Positions 12,130 through 22,217 of a stretch of 32,000 nt of DNA are shown one piece after another. The position numbers and the translations under genes are program-made. A model generated the notes under the pieces. It made no database searches and had not been told where the DNA came from. It worked only from the letters and a program-made list of their open reading frames with translations. Origin of the DNA: Candidatus Heimdallarchaeota archaeon B3_Heim (GTDB taxonomy: Archaea; Asgardarchaeota; Heimdallarchaeia; Hodarchaeales; Hodarchaeaceae); contig NJBF01000022.1 of NCBI GenBank assembly GCA_003144275.1, positions 40,509 to 72,508 of the forward strand. Direction: 5' to 3'. Position 1 is the stretch's first letter. Each line of letters starts with the position of its first letter.

Positions 12130-15100
12130 CTAGTGGAAACGGAAATGAACTTGGGGTAATGAGATTACTCCTCGCTCGGTCAATCGTACACCACATATTG
12201 GACACTCGTTCCTAATCTTAACACTCTGAAGTAAGTGACGGCGATGAAAAAAGCTGGAACATTGCGTACATTCAACTAAATCAACATCGGTCGTTGTTAC
12301 GACACTTTTAAGGCAAATTGCGCATGTTAGTCGTTGCGTACAGAATCCACAATTTTTTTGTTTCTCTAAAACAGGATTATTACATTTAGGGCAATTAGAT
12401 TGATAACTAGATTGTTTAGGTAATTCTGTAGTTGTTTTAAGAGTACTTTTATAGATTTCTTTAAGACCTGAACTCCACATGTGGAATATTGTCTGTGGGG
12501 AATCAATCTCGAAGCGTTTGATAAATTTGTTTATTGCCAGAGAATATTCTAGTTCGAATTCTCCCTGTTCAGGTAGCTCCATGAGAAATGGTAAATTTAT
12601 CCATGAACAGTACTCTCCTATTAACGGTAGAATAGCGCGTTTTATCTCAGCTCTTTGTGATTGTTGATATAGAGAGATGTAGTATTTTTCTGGCTCAGAA
12701 GGTGGTCTTTTAGCAAATCGGGTTGTTAACGCGCTAATAGTAGAATCTTCAGAGATATTAATTGAAGGATCTGAAAGGACGTAATCTAATGAGTCTTGAG
12801 GCAGTTTAGTAAAATATGCACTGAGTAAGGACTCACGTACAGATAAATGCGAGTCATTTAATATGGTCAATATTCTAATATCGTCCTCTATTGATCTTCC
12901 TACAGCTTGCTTTATGAGAGCTGATAAAAGAGCTTGACCTTCATCTGAGAATTTTTTTGTCTGATCATTAGTAATAATATCTCGAATCAGCTTATAATCA
13001 TTTGTTGGCCCTCTGAGACGTGAGAGACATTGATCAACAAGAACTGGTCTTAAACTTTTTGTTTTCAGACCTGGGATAATATATTTGAGTAAGATACCAA
13101 ATTTCTTTTCTGATAATTTATTGGTATAGTTCCCAACAGAGATTGCAAGGGAGGAAAGATTGTGATCATCAATATTCTCAATAGTTACTCTTGGATATTT
13201 ACCAATTATTTGGTTAAAGAGGTTTTCAACGAACAATCTCAAATTTACATCAGTATTAAGCTTGGTAAGACGAATTAATACAAGATACAGGAGTTTTTTC
13301 GGGTTTAAGTCAAGAATTGATAGAATTAACGGTTCGATATTCTTATGATTCAACAATGCAGGGTCCCGAATTGAGAGTATTGCATAGAGCATCTGGCTAC
13401 TCTTGGTTGAAAAATCGGGGATGATATATTTCTGGATGTAGGAAGAATGATTCCTTGGTAATGATATGACAATCTCCCCTAAAATTGGTATACTCTTATT
13501 AAATACATGTTTTATTAAGATCTTATATTTAGGTAAGCTTTTACTTGATATAGAGGAGATATTTTGCCAGAATTTCACGATGTCGATGTCAATAAGTTTC
13601 TTTGTAATTTTCAATAACGTCTCTGTATTTTTTTTGGTTTTTTTTTCAAATTTGTTCAAAAATAGAGGTAATACTTCATTTGGACGAAGTAAAAATACTC
13701 TTTCCCATGAGGTGATTAGAGTTTTTTCGAATCCTACTCTAGAAACGAGTTTTTCAATATCAGTATTACTCAGTTCACTAGCAATAATATTCATAGGAAA
13801 CGAAATTTTACTACTAATTTGTATTATTTCATCAAAATGATCCTTAAAGTGGATCTTCAGATAGCTAGCTAAGCTGGTATAGACTGTTGACTCAATAGGT
13901 TGAGAAGTAGTGAGTAATGGAAGAAAATAATTAAAATTTTGGTATAAATAACCAATATGAGAAATATATTTATTTTTTATTAAGTAATTGCTGATATTAC
14001 CCACTGTTTTTGCATCAAAACTTTCTAGAAGTCGAGATACTCGTTTTCTTCTAGTGTAATATTGTTGTTGGATGATTTGCTCTATTAACTTTTTCCATTG
14101 AGTTGTTTTTAGGGAATTGAGTGAAGGACGGAGTATGTTCTGAATATTTGTATCTTTGGTTTGAAAATAAGAATCGATTACTCGTTTTATATCGAGTGTA
14201 GAGTAATTCTGAAATTCTGAAGTAAAGAATTGTGCATATTTGTTTAGATCCTTTTCGAGAAGTGTGAGAAGGAAAAAAAGATAGTCAATTCCGTGAGAGT
14301 CTTTTTGTGCATCTAAATATTTCAATATTGATGATGCGCTTGTAAACAGTAAAGATTCAAGTGTATCAGATAGGAAAGAAATTTCTTTTTCAGTTTCATG
14401 ACGGGTAATTTGAGAAAAGTAGGCGATAATTAATGGGTTTGTTTGTGTTTGTTGTTTAAGAGAGACTGCATTTAAAATTGCACCATTCGTTAGGTTTTTT
14501 GATACAAGCCATTCAATAAATTGTTGCTGTGCTTTATTGGAAGAATTACTGAACCTATGAATCAGAAAAGTAAGCTCCTCACGTGAACTATCAAATATTT
14601 TTAAAAAGATCGGTATCTTTTGAGGAGAAATCTTATTTGGTAGATTTTCGGATGAGCAAGCATTAATTAAATTGTCTTTAGAAACTTCTCGAAAAAGTGG
14701 GAGTATTAGATCAGTGGGTTGTTTCATGTAGCTCTGTAAGATAAGATATAATACTCTAACATCACATTTTACCCAAAGGATTAATAATTCAATAAGATCC
14801 ATATTTTTATTCTTAACTGCCGTTCTATAAGCTTCTTCACTTAATTTCGGATTAAACTGACCCAGTATTCCTTTGGTTATCGATTTATTACACATTCCCC
14901 AGTTCTCAATTAACTTGTTTAAGAACATCTCCTGTACCTCCATTTCAAGTGCAAGTATTGAATCAAGAAATGCTGTGTTTGTAAATACGCTTAATAAATG
15001 ATTAAATCGGTCTGGGTTCAACTCATCAAGATGATTCAAAATATGTGCTAAGCTTTGAGGTAATAATTGTTCAAAACCATATATCATCTGTTTAGTTTCA

Positions 15101-15288
15101 TTATTTTCCCGAAAATTATCGAAAAAAATTCTTATGGCGTGATCAGGACTCTCCTTTACTAGATTATTGATTTTCTTTTTCCATATAAACGGTACTCGTC
15201 CAAAAGAAATCTTTTCATAATCAGATTTTTCCATTGCAGTCATTAGTCCTGATATCACTATGAAGTCTGGGTAATCATTTGTACTCAA
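12130..15288 (-). CDS. Large helical (alpha-solenoid-like) protein with C-terminal C4 zinc ribbon + RING-type domain
   Basis: About 970 aa of Leu/Ile-rich amphipathic sequence, then CPKC-x10-CGFC-x5-CAIC-x14-CTQC-x4-H-x2-H-x10-CPIC (12193..12393). Start is TTG 15288 or ATG 15243. Confidence 0.75.
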   Translation of the reverse strand: MSTNDYPDFIVISGLMTAMEKSDYEKISFGRVPFIWKKKINNLVKESPDHAIRIFFDNFRENNETKQMIYGFEQLLPQSLAHILNHLDELNPDRFNHLLSVFTNTAFLDSILALEMEVQEMFLNKLIENWGMCNKSITKGILGQFNPKLSEEAYRTAVKNKNMDLIELLILWVKCDVRVLYLILQSYMKQPTDLILPLFREVSKDNLINACSSENLPNKISPQKIPIFLKIFDSSREELTFLIHRFSNSSNKAQQQFIEWLVSKNLTNGAILNAVSLKQQTQTNPLIIAYFSQITRHETEKEISFLSDTLESLLFTSASSILKYLDAQKDSHGIDYLFFLLTLLEKDLNKYAQFFTSEFQNYSTLDIKRVIDSYFQTKDTNIQNILRPSLNSLKTTQWKKLIEQIIQQQYYTRRKRVSRLLESFDAKTVGNISNYLIKNKYISHIGYLYQNFNYFLPLLTTSQPIESTVYTSLASYLKIHFKDHFDEIIQISSKISFPMNIIASELSNTDIEKLVSRVGFEKTLITSWERVFLLRPNEVLPLFLNKFEKKTKKNTETLLKITKKLIDIDIVKFWQNISSISSKSLPKYKILIKHVFNKSIPILGEIVISLPRNHSSYIQKYIIPDFSTKSSQMLYAILSIRDPALLNHKNIEPLILSILDLNPKKLLYLVLIRLTKLNTDVNLRLFVENLFNQIIGKYPRVTIENIDDHNLSSLAISVGNYTNKLSEKKFGILLKYIIPGLKTKSLRPVLVDQCLSRLRGPTNDYKLIRDIITNDQTKKFSDEGQALLSALIKQAVGRSIEDDIRILTILNDSHLSVRESLLSAYFTKLPQDSLDYVLSDPSINISEDSTISALTTRFAKRPPSEPEKYYISLYQQSQRAEIKRAILPLIGEYCSWINLPFLMELPEQGEFELEYSLAINKFIKRFEIDSPQTIFHMWSSGLKEIYKSTLKTTTELPKQSSYQSNCPKCNNPVLEKQKNCGFCTQRLTCAICLKSVVTTTDVDLVECTQCSSFFHRRHLLQSVKIRNECPICGVRLTERGVISLPQVHFRFH

Positions 15289-18423: not shown

Positions 18424-19695
18424 ATGAAAACACAATTACTCGAAGATGAAGTATTATCAGCGATGAGCTTGAGTCGGCAGTATGGAATATTTAATGCCAA
18501 TTTAATGATGTTATTATCGGATGAGGATAAAGAATTCATTGAGAATATCCAGAATATCTGTTTAGAAAAGGAAGAAGAGATTGGGGGAACTCCTGGGCAT
18601 AATAAGTTGGATGTTTATGAGTTATTCCCTTGGGCTGGAAGCCACGGGCTTATTAACCGAAGCGTTGAATATCCCCATCGTGATGATTTGGAAATTGGGC
18701 TGAAGCCTGAGATTTTAAGACAATGGACATTGGATATTTTTAACCCCCAGTTAAGTTTCGCCTTCGGAGCTTCAGTTCTTGCAATAAATCCTATTGCTCA
18801 CCATAACGAAGGTAAAGAACCTCTTTTGAACGATTTAAAGGGTTTACTTGATGGGAAGAAAATTGGATGTATTGGTATTACTGAACCCTTACAAGGATCT
18901 GATGCCGTTAATATGAAAGTGAAGGCAGAAAAAGTTTCTGATGGAATCGTAATTAATGGAGAAAAATGCTATACAACCAATAGTCCTAAAGCTGATCTAT
19001 GTGTAGTTTATGCCGTTTACAATCCAGAAGATCCAAGGAGCACTATGATTCAAGGAGTTTCACATAAAGACTGGAATGCTGGCTTTAAAGCTGAAAGAAT
19101 CGGTATTCCCTCCGTTAGTAAAATTCATATTGGAAAAACTATATTTGAAGATGCACACATCCCAACCGATTATATCACAGGGGATAATGGTGCTGGTTAT
19201 GATATCCTCTTCGAAGGTTTAGTACCAGAACGTATTGGGATAGCAGCTCAGTGTGTAGGGAACATGTGGGGTGCTTTTACACTTGCGTCTATCTATTCAA
19301 CAGTACGAGAACAATTTGGCGAGAAAATTTTACGGCATCAAGCAGTAGGAATGTCTGTAATAGCAAAGTATCACGCTAGATTGAATGTCGCTACAATGGC
19401 ATTATTAAAACTAGCAGAGACATATGATGCTAAAAAGGAAGAATTGGCCGATATTCCTCCAACTATGAATCCGTTGGTCGCTACTGCGTCACATATGAAA
19501 GAATATTGTTCATTTTTGAACCATGAGTTATGTTATGAGCTTATGCATGCAATGGGCGGAACTGGTGTCACCGATCAGACAAAAATGCCTCTTTATCAAG
19601 GACTTTCCGAAATATCAGAGGTTGTGGGTGGAACCAGAAACGTTCAACTCCTCATTGGTTCCCGAACAATTAATACTATGGTTAAAATGGCATAA
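18424..19695 (+). CDS. Acyl-CoA dehydrogenase family protein
   Basis: GITEPLQGSDA, INGEKCYTTN, ERIGIAAQCVG, REQFGEKI, HAMGGTG and EVVGGTRNVQ. Confidence 0.88.
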   Translation: MKTQLLEDEVLSAMSLSRQYGIFNANLMMLLSDEDKEFIENIQNICLEKEEEIGGTPGHNKLDVYELFPWAGSHGLINRSVEYPHRDDLEIGLKPEILRQWTLDIFNPQLSFAFGASVLAINPIAHHNEGKEPLLNDLKGLLDGKKIGCIGITEPLQGSDAVNMKVKAEKVSDGIVINGEKCYTTNSPKADLCVVYAVYNPEDPRSTMIQGVSHKDWNAGFKAERIGIPSVSKIHIGKTIFEDAHIPTDYITGDNGAGYDILFEGLVPERIGIAAQCVGNMWGAFTLASIYSTVREQFGEKILRHQAVGMSVIAKYHARLNVATMALLKLAETYDAKKEELADIPPTMNPLVATASHMKEYCSFLNHELCYELMHAMGGTGVTDQTKMPLYQGLSEISEVVGGTRNVQLLIGSRTINTMVKMA

Positions 19696-19697
19696 GA

Positions 19698-19737
19698 TTT
19701 CCCCCATTTTCCCTTTTTTTCCTTTCTTTTTTCTTTT
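19698..19737 (+). terminator. Pyrimidine/oligo-T terminator candidate
   Basis: Long T/C run immediately after the acyl-CoA dehydrogenase stop. Confidence 0.45.
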
Positions 19738-19937
19738 CAAATTCAAAATCTTTTGTTTAACTTTTATCGTTTCCATCTTTGTTGATTTTAGCAGTAATTA
19801 AGTAGAATGAAGACAAAAAATTATGTCCTGCGGATATTTTGTCGAGAATTATTTATTATTAGTTGAGCCTTTATTTTTCATGTAGAATTTCCCTGAATAA
19901 GGCGATAACTGGGATAAATTCTCTAGGTGTCTGGCGG

Positions 19938-20849
19938 ATGACATTACTTTCAGTCAAGGTGTTTGATGATGCGAATGAAGAAATTGTCTCTACAATTTCT
20001 GTCACTCCTGATAATTGTCAGACTTCTGCTTCTTTACCAGCCATTCGTAGGCTATTACTTCAGAATAATAATACTCAACCTATTCAAGGGTGGGTTTGTG
20101 GAGACAAGCTCCTAGCCTTTTCATATTTAAATTCACAAAAAGTACTTTTGCTTGCCATTGCCAGTAAAAATACTTCTTTCTCAAAACTTCAATCTTTTCT
20201 AGAATTATTAGGAAAATCCTACAAGCCAGGACTATTTGAAAAACATCAGCCTTCTTTCCAAAAAGATTTTCAGGACATCTGTGATTCTGTTGTTAGAATG
20301 GTGGATTCCTCAACGACACTAAGTATTTCATTATTAGGACTCGCTCGTTCGGGAAAGACAACTTTCATTCAACAACATATAATCGAACAGCAACTAGCAG
20401 GCTTTAATTCGTATAAACCAACAAGACTAGTTAACATCGTATCACATGAAAGGTCTACACCCAGTCCACATATACGTTTTTACGACCTTGGAATGGCTTT
20501 CCAACAACATTGGTGGAAATTTAGTACAGAGTCAGATGGTTATATTTTCTTTGTAGATATCTCAGATAATCGGTCTATTAATGCCTCAAAAGAATTATTA
20601 GAGGAAATTCGTAACTTTTGGGATTTGCCATATGTGATTGCTGCTAATAAAATTGATATTGGCTCCATCAAGAATGTGAGAAGATATCTTTCTAGGAAAT
20701 TACTTGTACCTATTCGATTGATTTACGAAACTGAATCCGTAACAGGAGTTGGCTTCGATCCTTTACTTGAGGGGATGCTTTCAGAGATTCATAAGAACAG
20801 ATCTTATTCCTCAATTATTCAGCCTCAGCCGACGAAGAACGAATTCTAA
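19938..20849 (+). CDS. Arf/Rab-like small GTPase with N-terminal longin-like domain
   Basis: G1 GLARSGKT, G2 YKPT, altered G3 YDLGMA, IFFVD, G4 NKID and G5-like ETES-TG. The N-terminal ~125 aa show a beta-beta-alpha-beta-beta-beta-alpha-alpha pattern by eye. ATG 19938 is preferred over TTG 19863. Confidence 0.72.
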   Translation: MTLLSVKVFDDANEEIVSTISVTPDNCQTSASLPAIRRLLLQNNNTQPIQGWVCGDKLLAFSYLNSQKVLLLAIASKNTSFSKLQSFLELLGKSYKPGLFEKHQPSFQKDFQDICDSVVRMVDSSTTLSISLLGLARSGKTTFIQQHIIEQQLAGFNSYKPTRLVNIVSHERSTPSPHIRFYDLGMAFQQHWWKFSTESDGYIFFVDISDNRSINASKELLEEIRNFWDLPYVIAANKIDIGSIKNVRRYLSRKLLVPIRLIYETESVTGVGFDPLLEGMLSEIHKNRSYSSIIQPQPTKNEF

Positions 20850-20921: not shown

Positions 20922-22217
20922 ATGGCGGTGTGTCTATTGACGAAAAAATTTCAATCTAAATCTGAGATTCAGAGGTTAGAAACAATCGTTTCGATCACCA
21001 ACGCATTTATTCTCTATGATTTTCAAACAATGTTGGATTATATCATAAAAACAGTTACTGAGAAGATAGATGCTGCGATTGGGGGGATTTTTCTATTAGA
21101 AAAGGATTCTGTAGTGCTTGTAGCGGAGGTGGGAGGAACTTTACCCCTCTATAATACCGTCAAACAACAAGCGCTGTTTACCTCAACTGGACAGTCGCAC
21201 GAAAAGAATTATTCTACCATAAAGGGTCTTGCAGCCCAAACAGTTCTTGAAGAAAAAACCATAGTTATAAATGATATATCAACTTTACAAGTATCTAAAA
21301 GGGCACAGAAAGTTGTGAAGGACTTAGGTATAACTAATTTATTATCCAGTCCAATATAATATCATAATATCCCACATGGAGTAATACAAGTAGCTCGTAC
21401 TGGAAATAAACCGTTTTCTATGGAAGAAGTTTCGTTTATTGATGACATTACCGCCGAGCTTGGTATCGTTATCATTCAAAAGGCTACTGATGAAAGAGTT
21501 AATGAAACATTGGATGAGGTAGAATTCATGGTGGACTTATTGACCCATGACGTCTCTAGTCAATCAATGATAATCTGGAGCTGTCTGGAAGAAATTAATT
21601 CTATGTTAGATCCACAAAATCTGGATGGAGAAATTTTTACACAAACAGCGATTCAGGCACTTACTCGAGTTCAAACAATTATAGATCAAGTGAGAGTATT
21701 ATCTAGTTTGAAGCGGCTTGGGAGGACCGATTATACTCCCATTGATCTTGGAGGTGTTCTCAACAGAGCTATTAAGTCAGTTAACTCTATGTTCCCAGAA
21801 GATAATCTAGACATAGAGGTTAGTATTTCTAGTTATAATATTTTCGTCAATGGGACGACAATCATCGATAATTGTTTCATGAATCTTTTACAAAACGCAG
21901 TAATAGCTGATAATCATTCCGTAAAGAAAATTAGAATAAACGTTACTGAAACGGTATCAGATGTAATTAAAATTGAGGTGGAAGATCATGGGGAAGGAAT
22001 TCCAGATGAGCTCAAACCTCGGGTATTTCAAAGGCTTTTTCGCGCACGATCGAAGGAGAAACCACAAGGTTCTGGGTTGGGTTTGTTCATTGTTAGGACA
22101 ATAATTGAGAAGTTCGAAGGTAAAATTAGAGTAGAAAATAGAGTTAAAAATGATTACACTCAAGGAACTCGGTTTATCATTGAATTACCAAGAATTGAGG
22201 TTACTCCTATTGATTAG
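20922..22217 (+). pseudogene. GAF-domain sensor histidine kinase interrupted by one in-frame TAA (21357-21359)
   Basis: Track ORFs 20922..21359 and 21420..22217 share a frame. Read-through gives LLSSPI*YHNIPHGVIQVARTGNKPFSMEEVSFI, which completes the GAF domain. H-box LLTHDV, N-box NLLQNA, DHGEGIP and GSGLGL are intact. Start may be TTG 20937 after a GGCGGTG SD-like motif. Confidence 0.8.

Follow-up and report, generated by a model that had tools for sequence, protein, structure and literature searches.

A longin-Arf-like small GTPase family of one Hodarchaeales genus with a Gly-Gln deletion in G3

We describe a small GTPase family of Asgard archaea in which the Gly-Gln dipeptide of the G3 motif (DxGGQ) has been deleted. 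In the 32,000-nucleotide stretch of Candidatus Heimdallarchaeota archaeon B3_Heim DNA analysed here (the window), the family is represented by a plus-strand gene at 19938..20849, which encodes a 303-aa fusion of a longin domain with an Arf-like G domain and is present once per genome throughout one GTDB genus (22/22 genomes). While the longin-Arf-like architecture is known, the Gly-Gln-deleted switch is a new variant. Going by the motifs that were kept and lost, we lean towards the view that the family protein would be a GTP-binding, hydrolysis-impaired constitutive adaptor derived from canonical longin-Arf-like stock.

Motifs and fold

Switch II of the window protein starts with D-L-G-M-A-F (20484..20501, plus strand), and profile alignments of 74 family sequences place the loss of the Gly-Gln of DxGGQ at this point. 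In an HMM alignment with an Asgard Arf crystal sequence, DLG--MAF stands opposite DLGGQLHF, and the identical two-residue gap appears when the protein is aligned to its nearest canonical relatives. In an 82-row alignment, every family row reaches the conserved switch-II aromatic 5 columns after the G3 Asp, as against 7 in 66/66 other small GTPases. Asp183 and Trp192 are 9 positions apart throughout the family (74/74). The Gly left in the motif (71/74) is the third-position one, an Arf-specific trait (PMC11914678), while the fourth-position Gly and the Gln are gone. The switch-II aromatics are kept across the family, and in the predicted model a helix runs from residue 186, directly behind Gly185. 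The preliminary description had read this stretch as a motif that had lost its DxxG Gly and catalytic Gln position. The loss itself stands, in 74/74 sequences, yet it came about through a two-residue deletion and not through Gly-to-Met and Gln-to-Ala exchanges. The placing of YDLGMA at 20484-20495 likewise shifts, as these positions encode D-L-G-M and the whole of YDLGMA spans 20481-20498. With the defect common to all 74 aligned orthologues, a normal DxxGQ elsewhere in the family, which had been named as a possible refutation, did not materialise.

Around this deletion, residues 125-291 (20310..20810, plus strand) form an Arf-like G domain. Pfam Arf matches residues 123-246 (E 3.8e-10), the best Foldseek matches of the G-domain model are Arl1, Arf6, Arl3, GerdArfR1 and HodArfR1, and VIA structural comparison with Arf6 gave a Z of 21. 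The model from the deeper alignment has the full G fold (mean pLDDT 82.5, pTM 0.63); it required canonical Arf sequences in the alignment, with pLDDT under 50 without them, and therefore leans to the canonical Arf shape.

The canonical patterns of G1 (GxxxxGK[ST]), G2 (Thr) and G4 ([NT]KxD) are all present in the window protein, whereas DxxG with the catalytic Gln in G3 and SA[KL] in G5 are not. Its translation confirms the intact G1 at 20337, G2 and G4 reported earlier; two departures had escaped that first reading, a non-canonical G5 ([EN][TS]) and a switch-I Gly replaced by Leu. In the G1 P-loop (GLARSGKT, 20337..20360; this and the following motifs on the plus strand), Gly134, Gly139 and Lys140 are invariant (74/74), and position 137 is mostly Arg (53 sequences), otherwise Lys (18) or Gln (3) (n=74); Arg at this position occurs in Gln-containing paralogues too. 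Switch I (20394..20429) carries a family-specific insert of 3-4 residues (LAGF), with Tyr159 and the G2 Thr162 (codon at 20421) invariant and Leu164 in place of the Arf Gly after PTx. G4 (NKID, 20646..20657) has an invariant Asp and a Lys that is changed to Met/Phe in 20/74 orthologues, and the G5 region (ETESVTG, 20727..20747) has [EN][TS] for SA. Helix 4 bears a basic stripe, N-x-R-[RK]-Y-L-x-R-K (20673..20699), which is conserved in the family and missing from the canonical sisters. Retained are the phosphate, Mg and guanine ligands, i.e. the G1 Lys and Ser/Thr, the G2 Thr, the G3 Asp and the G4 Asp; K140, T162, D183 and D240 are invariant (n=74).

The N-domain (residues 1-124; 19938..20309, plus strand), for which Pfam returned no match, is a longin by its predicted fold. 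In two AlphaFold2 models its elements follow the order E-E-H-E-E-E-H-H, with block pLDDT of about 60-90. When the N-domain model was compared with 48,161 solved chains (VIA), the best match was the VAMP7 longin (Z 11.9, rmsd 3.4, 114 aligned), with synbindin (Z 11.6), Sec22 (11.4) and sedlin (10.9) as further matches. The longins of AP sigma/mu and SR-alpha also rank above roadblock domains: the first 22 rows all belong to chains that contain a longin (Z 11.9 to 9.8), while roadblocks follow from Z 9.8 down with fewer aligned residues. The proposal that the N-terminal ~125 aa are a longin, made by eye, is thereby upheld. On the other hand, the idea that the GTPase carries its own regulator module finds no support. 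Helix 1 and the beta1-beta2 hairpin are the usual GTPase-binding face of longins; across the family the hairpin is well conserved, and helix 1 has the lowest conservation of all elements (0.40). Besides, the linker between longin helix 3 and the G domain measures 2-3 residues, and the orientation of the two domains is poorly fixed in the full-length model (pTM 0.63).

Distribution and origin

The source genome belongs to Hodarchaeales and measures 3.9 Mb. Orthologues share the start Met at 19938, and an upstream TTG start (19863) was discarded because their starts align to 19938. NCBIfam has no model covering the 303-aa protein, and a search for longer fused forms of it found none, which is weak evidence. 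A T-rich run at window positions 19700-19760, directly after the stop of an acyl-CoA dehydrogenase gene, resembles an archaeal terminator and therefore suggests that the GTPase gene has its own transcription, apart from the dehydrogenase; a promoter/terminator scan, whose models are bacterial and ill-suited to archaea, performed at chance level.

Searches of the remaining 61 genomes of the class yielded no orthologue, and an E-value step from 1e-77 to 1e-26 separates the family from the next matches. Its 74 sequences (about 16 effective ones at 70% identity) come from many samples and reach down to about 35% identity, and all share the G3 deletion. Across 11 genome pairs whose dS is at least 0.43, the G-domain dN/dS is 0.03-0.15; the nearest genome pair has 0.54, on a dS of 0.05 and hence few changes. 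The family is under purifying selection and, given a single copy in 22/22 genomes and a deletion fixed in 74/74 sequences, the loss is not drift.

In G-domain trees that exclude the G3 columns, the family forms a clade (100/100) on a long stem (1.0), nested among longin-G proteins that keep DLGGQ. It groups with two canonical groups (98/94), its sister being a longin-G-GAF pair (95/83). The family plus canonical sisters (97/85) is in turn sister to the ArfR/Arf clade (99/97) at 95/78, an unstarred node at which ArfR is represented by paralogues of the source genome and not by reference ArfR sequences. Canonical DxGGQ is present in every nearest sister, while canonical paralogues were found in only 3/22 genomes of the genus. 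The family would thus descend from canonical longin-Arf-like(-GAF) proteins with DLGGQ, the Gly-Gln of G3 having presumably been lost once, on the stem. In the best tree it stands apart from the phylum-wide longin-G family; as an AU test allows the two to be joined (p 0.39, not rejected), we keep to the broader name Arf-like, which takes in both ArfR and ArfL.

Mechanism and alternatives

In small GTPases, the amide of the DxxG Gly acts as gamma-phosphate sensor and the Gln positions the attacking water (PMC4316618). In the family protein, the gamma-phosphate would then not be sensed and the catalytic water not be placed; with switch II shortened and its helix starting right after the remaining Gly, little change of shape would be expected, and guanine nucleotide would be bound but poorly hydrolysed. 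With Gly and Gln deleted and the phosphate, Mg and guanine ligands kept, binding with little hydrolysis and little switching is the simplest expectation, although the backbone amide of residue 186 could stand in for the lost Gly amide. Loading with GTP might proceed without a GEF, via the G5 Ala-to-Thr/Ser change and, in one subclade, the G4 Lys-to-Met change. We propose this by analogy, since the two changes fall at the positions of the fast-exchange mutations Ras A146T and K117N, both of which increase GTP loading, and KRAS A146T releases GDP about 12-fold faster (PMC6813200). Partners would be bound through the conserved aromatic face of switch II, the basic helix 4 and the longin domain, and the protein would probably serve as a constitutive adaptor akin to class II pseudoGTPases such as Rnd or Rsg1. 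The motif pattern fits this class (GTP bound, not hydrolysed; for class definitions see PMC12722892), and Rsg1, whose atypical G3 is without Gln, purifies GTP-bound (PMC9012472).

Invariant nucleotide ligands and preserved switch-II aromatics would also suit a GTPase that still cycles, with the catalytic residue coming from a partner or a second protomer and possibly with help from the P-loop Arg/Lys137, a reading we consider unlikely. GTPases that have no Gln can nevertheless hydrolyse GTP when a residue is contributed in trans or in cis, examples being HAS-GTPases, Rap-RapGAP (as cited in PMC4316618) and the proposal that prokaryotic Gln-less small GTPases, Rup group 1, receive a Gln in trans (PMC4316618). 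These precedents, however, retain the DxxG Gly, whereas in the present family Gly and Gln are both deleted and the loop is shorter. Position 137, moreover, accepts Lys and Gln, and its Arg is shared with paralogues that have the catalytic Gln.

Alternatively, the family might be a class I pseudoGTPase in the making, i.e. a protein-binding module with weak or no nucleotide binding, which strikes us as rather improbable. Every member departs from the canonical form at G3, at G5 and at the switch-I Gly, and binding may indeed be weak or absent given G4 decay in 20/74 sequences and G5 decay in all; besides, the NCBIfam small_GTP model is matched by both canonical sisters but not by the family profile. 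Yet over a range of 35-94% identity no member deviates at the G1 Gly/Lys, the G2 Thr, the G3 Asp or the G4 Asp. Such constancy would be difficult to account for if no nucleotide were bound and counts against this reading; moreover, known class I cases such as AAGAB are devoid of G motifs (PMC12490416).

A third proposal, compatible with the constitutive adaptor, concerns the downstream neighbour, a GAF + DHp + HATPase histidine kinase gene (20922..22217, plus strand) and possible partner: the GTPase would be output or scaffold of this kinase, in a conservon-like manner. We attach little likelihood to it. A kinase orthologue is present in 13/22 genomes, directly downstream of the GTPase in 12 of them and, in the 13th, at contig ends; where present, it never moved away. 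The source contig has no response regulator, and the longin-Arf-like gene is the only one of the 45 small GTPases in the genome within 1.5 kb of a kinase. Moreover, canonical sisters either carry a fused GAF (P0068, P0114, P0069, L051) or adjoin GAF-kinase and response-regulator genes. However, 9/22 genomes have an intact GTPase but yielded no kinase, and the kinase is GAF-less in five genomes and broken by a stop in B3_Heim; the kinases of the canonical sisters are different proteins, and the fused GAF of the sisters is not specifically related to the kinase GAF (probability 18%). That comparison also leaves unsupported the notion that the kinase GAF split off from a longin-G-GAF ancestor. 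Complex prediction for the GTPase with an intact kinase orthologue scored 0.00 and weighs neither for nor against. Finally, an acyl-CoA dehydrogenase gene (22/22) and a solenoid-RING gene (21/22) accompany the GTPase in more genomes than the kinase, a sign of general synteny across the entire region. Wider still is the notion that the Hodarchaeales longin-Arf-like clade links GAF-kinase two-component signalling to longin/Arf/Rag machinery, with the present family as its GTP-locked, kinase-binding or kinase-regulating member. To this we assign a similarly low probability; if true, it would be an archaeal counterpart of the conservon built of eukaryotic-signature parts.

A decaying copy or sequencing artefact deserves practically no credence and is already refuted by the orthologue data: the adjoining kinase in the B3_Heim assembly does have a lone stop, but the same in-frame deletion recurs in 74/74 sequences from many samples, the frames are open in 22/22 genomes and dN/dS lies far below 1.

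Genomic neighbourhood

The stop that splits the kinase gene is an in-frame TAA at 21357-21359, where its orthologue L001 (94% identity) carries TCA (Ser); by this comparison it is a C-to-A change from a Ser codon and not a damaged Trp codon. The five GAF-less kinases (L009, L012, L013, L014, L060) have undergone in-frame removal of the domain, with a short N-terminus joined to DHp-HATPase. Full-length GAF kinases pair with NKxD at G4 of the GTPase and GAF-less ones with NMxD (all five), a pairing we do not count because the NMxD group is one subclade and hence a single event.

The acyl-CoA dehydrogenase gene (18424..19695, plus strand) lies upstream in every locus read and was treated as positional; a functional link to the GTPase was set aside, as at least 8 genomes have genes inserted between the two and synteny is general here. 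The RING protein gene (12130-15288, minus strand) encodes 1052 aa, mostly helical-looking, whose C-terminal part holds a zinc ribbon and a RING finger (Pfam zf-RING_2, E 3e-4). Within the class it was found in the genus alone (21/22 genomes), where it mostly lies 4-17 kb away from the GTPase gene; its structural-atlas matches are weak (0.79 or less). A solenoid-plus-RING layout would resemble eukaryotic tethering or coat subunits.

Four further loci (L019, L051, L052 and L053, in G050, G051, G061 and a related contig) hold a cassette of a canonical longin-Arf-like GTPase, GAF-fused or not, a 570-580 aa GAF-PAS-HisKA-HATPase kinase and a response regulator, to which a Rag-type GTPase is added in three loci and a Ras-like GTPase in L053. 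This combination of two-component and eukaryote-like GTPase genes occurs in only 3/22 genus genomes.

Comparison with known systems

Fusions of longin domains with Arf-like GTPases have been reported in Asgard archaea (Tran 2024, PMC10933270; Zhu 2025, PMC11914678; Klinger 2016, as cited in PMC4917890), which bears out the preliminary description on this point. Like these proteins, the family combines an N-terminal longin with an Arf-like G domain in about 300 aa. The profile of the canonical sisters matches 151/400 genomes of the phylum. The widespread Asgard longin-G form, probably the ArfL of Klinger 2016, differs in having GxxGVGKT and WDF[AS]GQ and in forming a separate clade, whereas the present family has an Arf-type G1 and no GQ dipeptide, and its range is limited to a single Hodarchaeales genus.

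The best solved-sequence match of the family is Asgard ArfR/AArf (HodArfR1 8OUK, GerdArfR1 8OUM/8OUN; E 1.5e-13), for which crystal structures are available (10.1101/2024.02.28.582541, PMC11914678). Some AArfs have an N-terminal longin, and their signature comprises Leu-Asp at G1 positions 2-3 and Gly at G3 position 3 (PMC11914678). The Arf fold, the Leu (73/74) and the Gly (71/74) are shared by our family; the Asp is found in 30/74, with Ala in the window protein. In contrast to ArfR/AArf, the family is devoid of the amphipathic N-terminal helix (the modelled N-terminus is a longin beta strand), the DxxG Gly, the Gln and the G5 SA, and in our tree it branches beside, not within, the ArfR/Arf clade.

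Rsg1 of the CPLANE complex and Rnd/RhoH likewise have an atypical G3 without catalytic Gln and are GTP-bound (PMC9012472, PMC12722892), and Rsg1 works with longin domains (PMC9012472). These proteins are, however, eukaryotic members of other subfamilies with a substituted rather than shortened G3, and the likeness is one of analogy, not homology. The SRalpha longin-SRbeta pair also combines a longin with an Arf-related GTPase, and both folds are among the structural matches; yet it consists of two chains acting in trans, whereas the window protein is one chain with a very short linker. In the actinobacterial conservons (CvnA-D) and Rup group 1 systems, the genes for a small GTPase and a histidine kinase are adjacent, and a roadblock/longin-fold module is present while a response regulator is not (PMC4316618). 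There, however, the GTPase is of MglA or Rup type and the roadblock has its own gene within a fixed operon, which in the conservon comprises four genes (kinase, roadblock, CvnC and MglA-type GTPase). Here the GTPase is Arf-like, the loci hold no CvnC-like or separate roadblock gene, and the kinase, not found in 9/22 genomes, is dispensable, its pairing with the GTPase being known from gene order.

Our literature search, in which key supplements were covered in part, found no published description of this family or of the Gly-Gln deletion, and nothing joining Asgard, small GTPase, histidine kinase and longin. Four family accessions and two G3 strings were absent from the part of the ArfR preprint supplement table that was covered, and an earlier listing is possible.

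Hodarchaeales count among the nearest relatives of eukaryotes, and in the literature their Arf-like proteins are regarded as functional switches. That one lineage fixed a seemingly switch-dead version in every genome, with a canonical paralogue left in only 3/22, cautions that not every Asgard Arf-like gene should be counted as a switch. As the deletion is clean and canonical relatives are close, this natural 'minus Gly-Gln' variant also offers a simple test of a G domain without gamma-phosphate sensor. The importance is limited by the restriction to one genus and by the recurrence of the fusion architecture in Asgard archaea.

Other small GTPases with an altered G3 or Gln position are encoded in the source genome (G000), at C102:5252-5782 (DISNS), C85:18936-19847 (EVGGR), C4:13059-14012 (DLGGH) and C35:20793-21335 (DFGGE). 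Besides, the P0071 locus (Logan SRR31656001) encodes a canonical longin-Arf-like protein of 1336 aa that extends into a very long helical tail, and its gene adjoins two tubulin-family genes.
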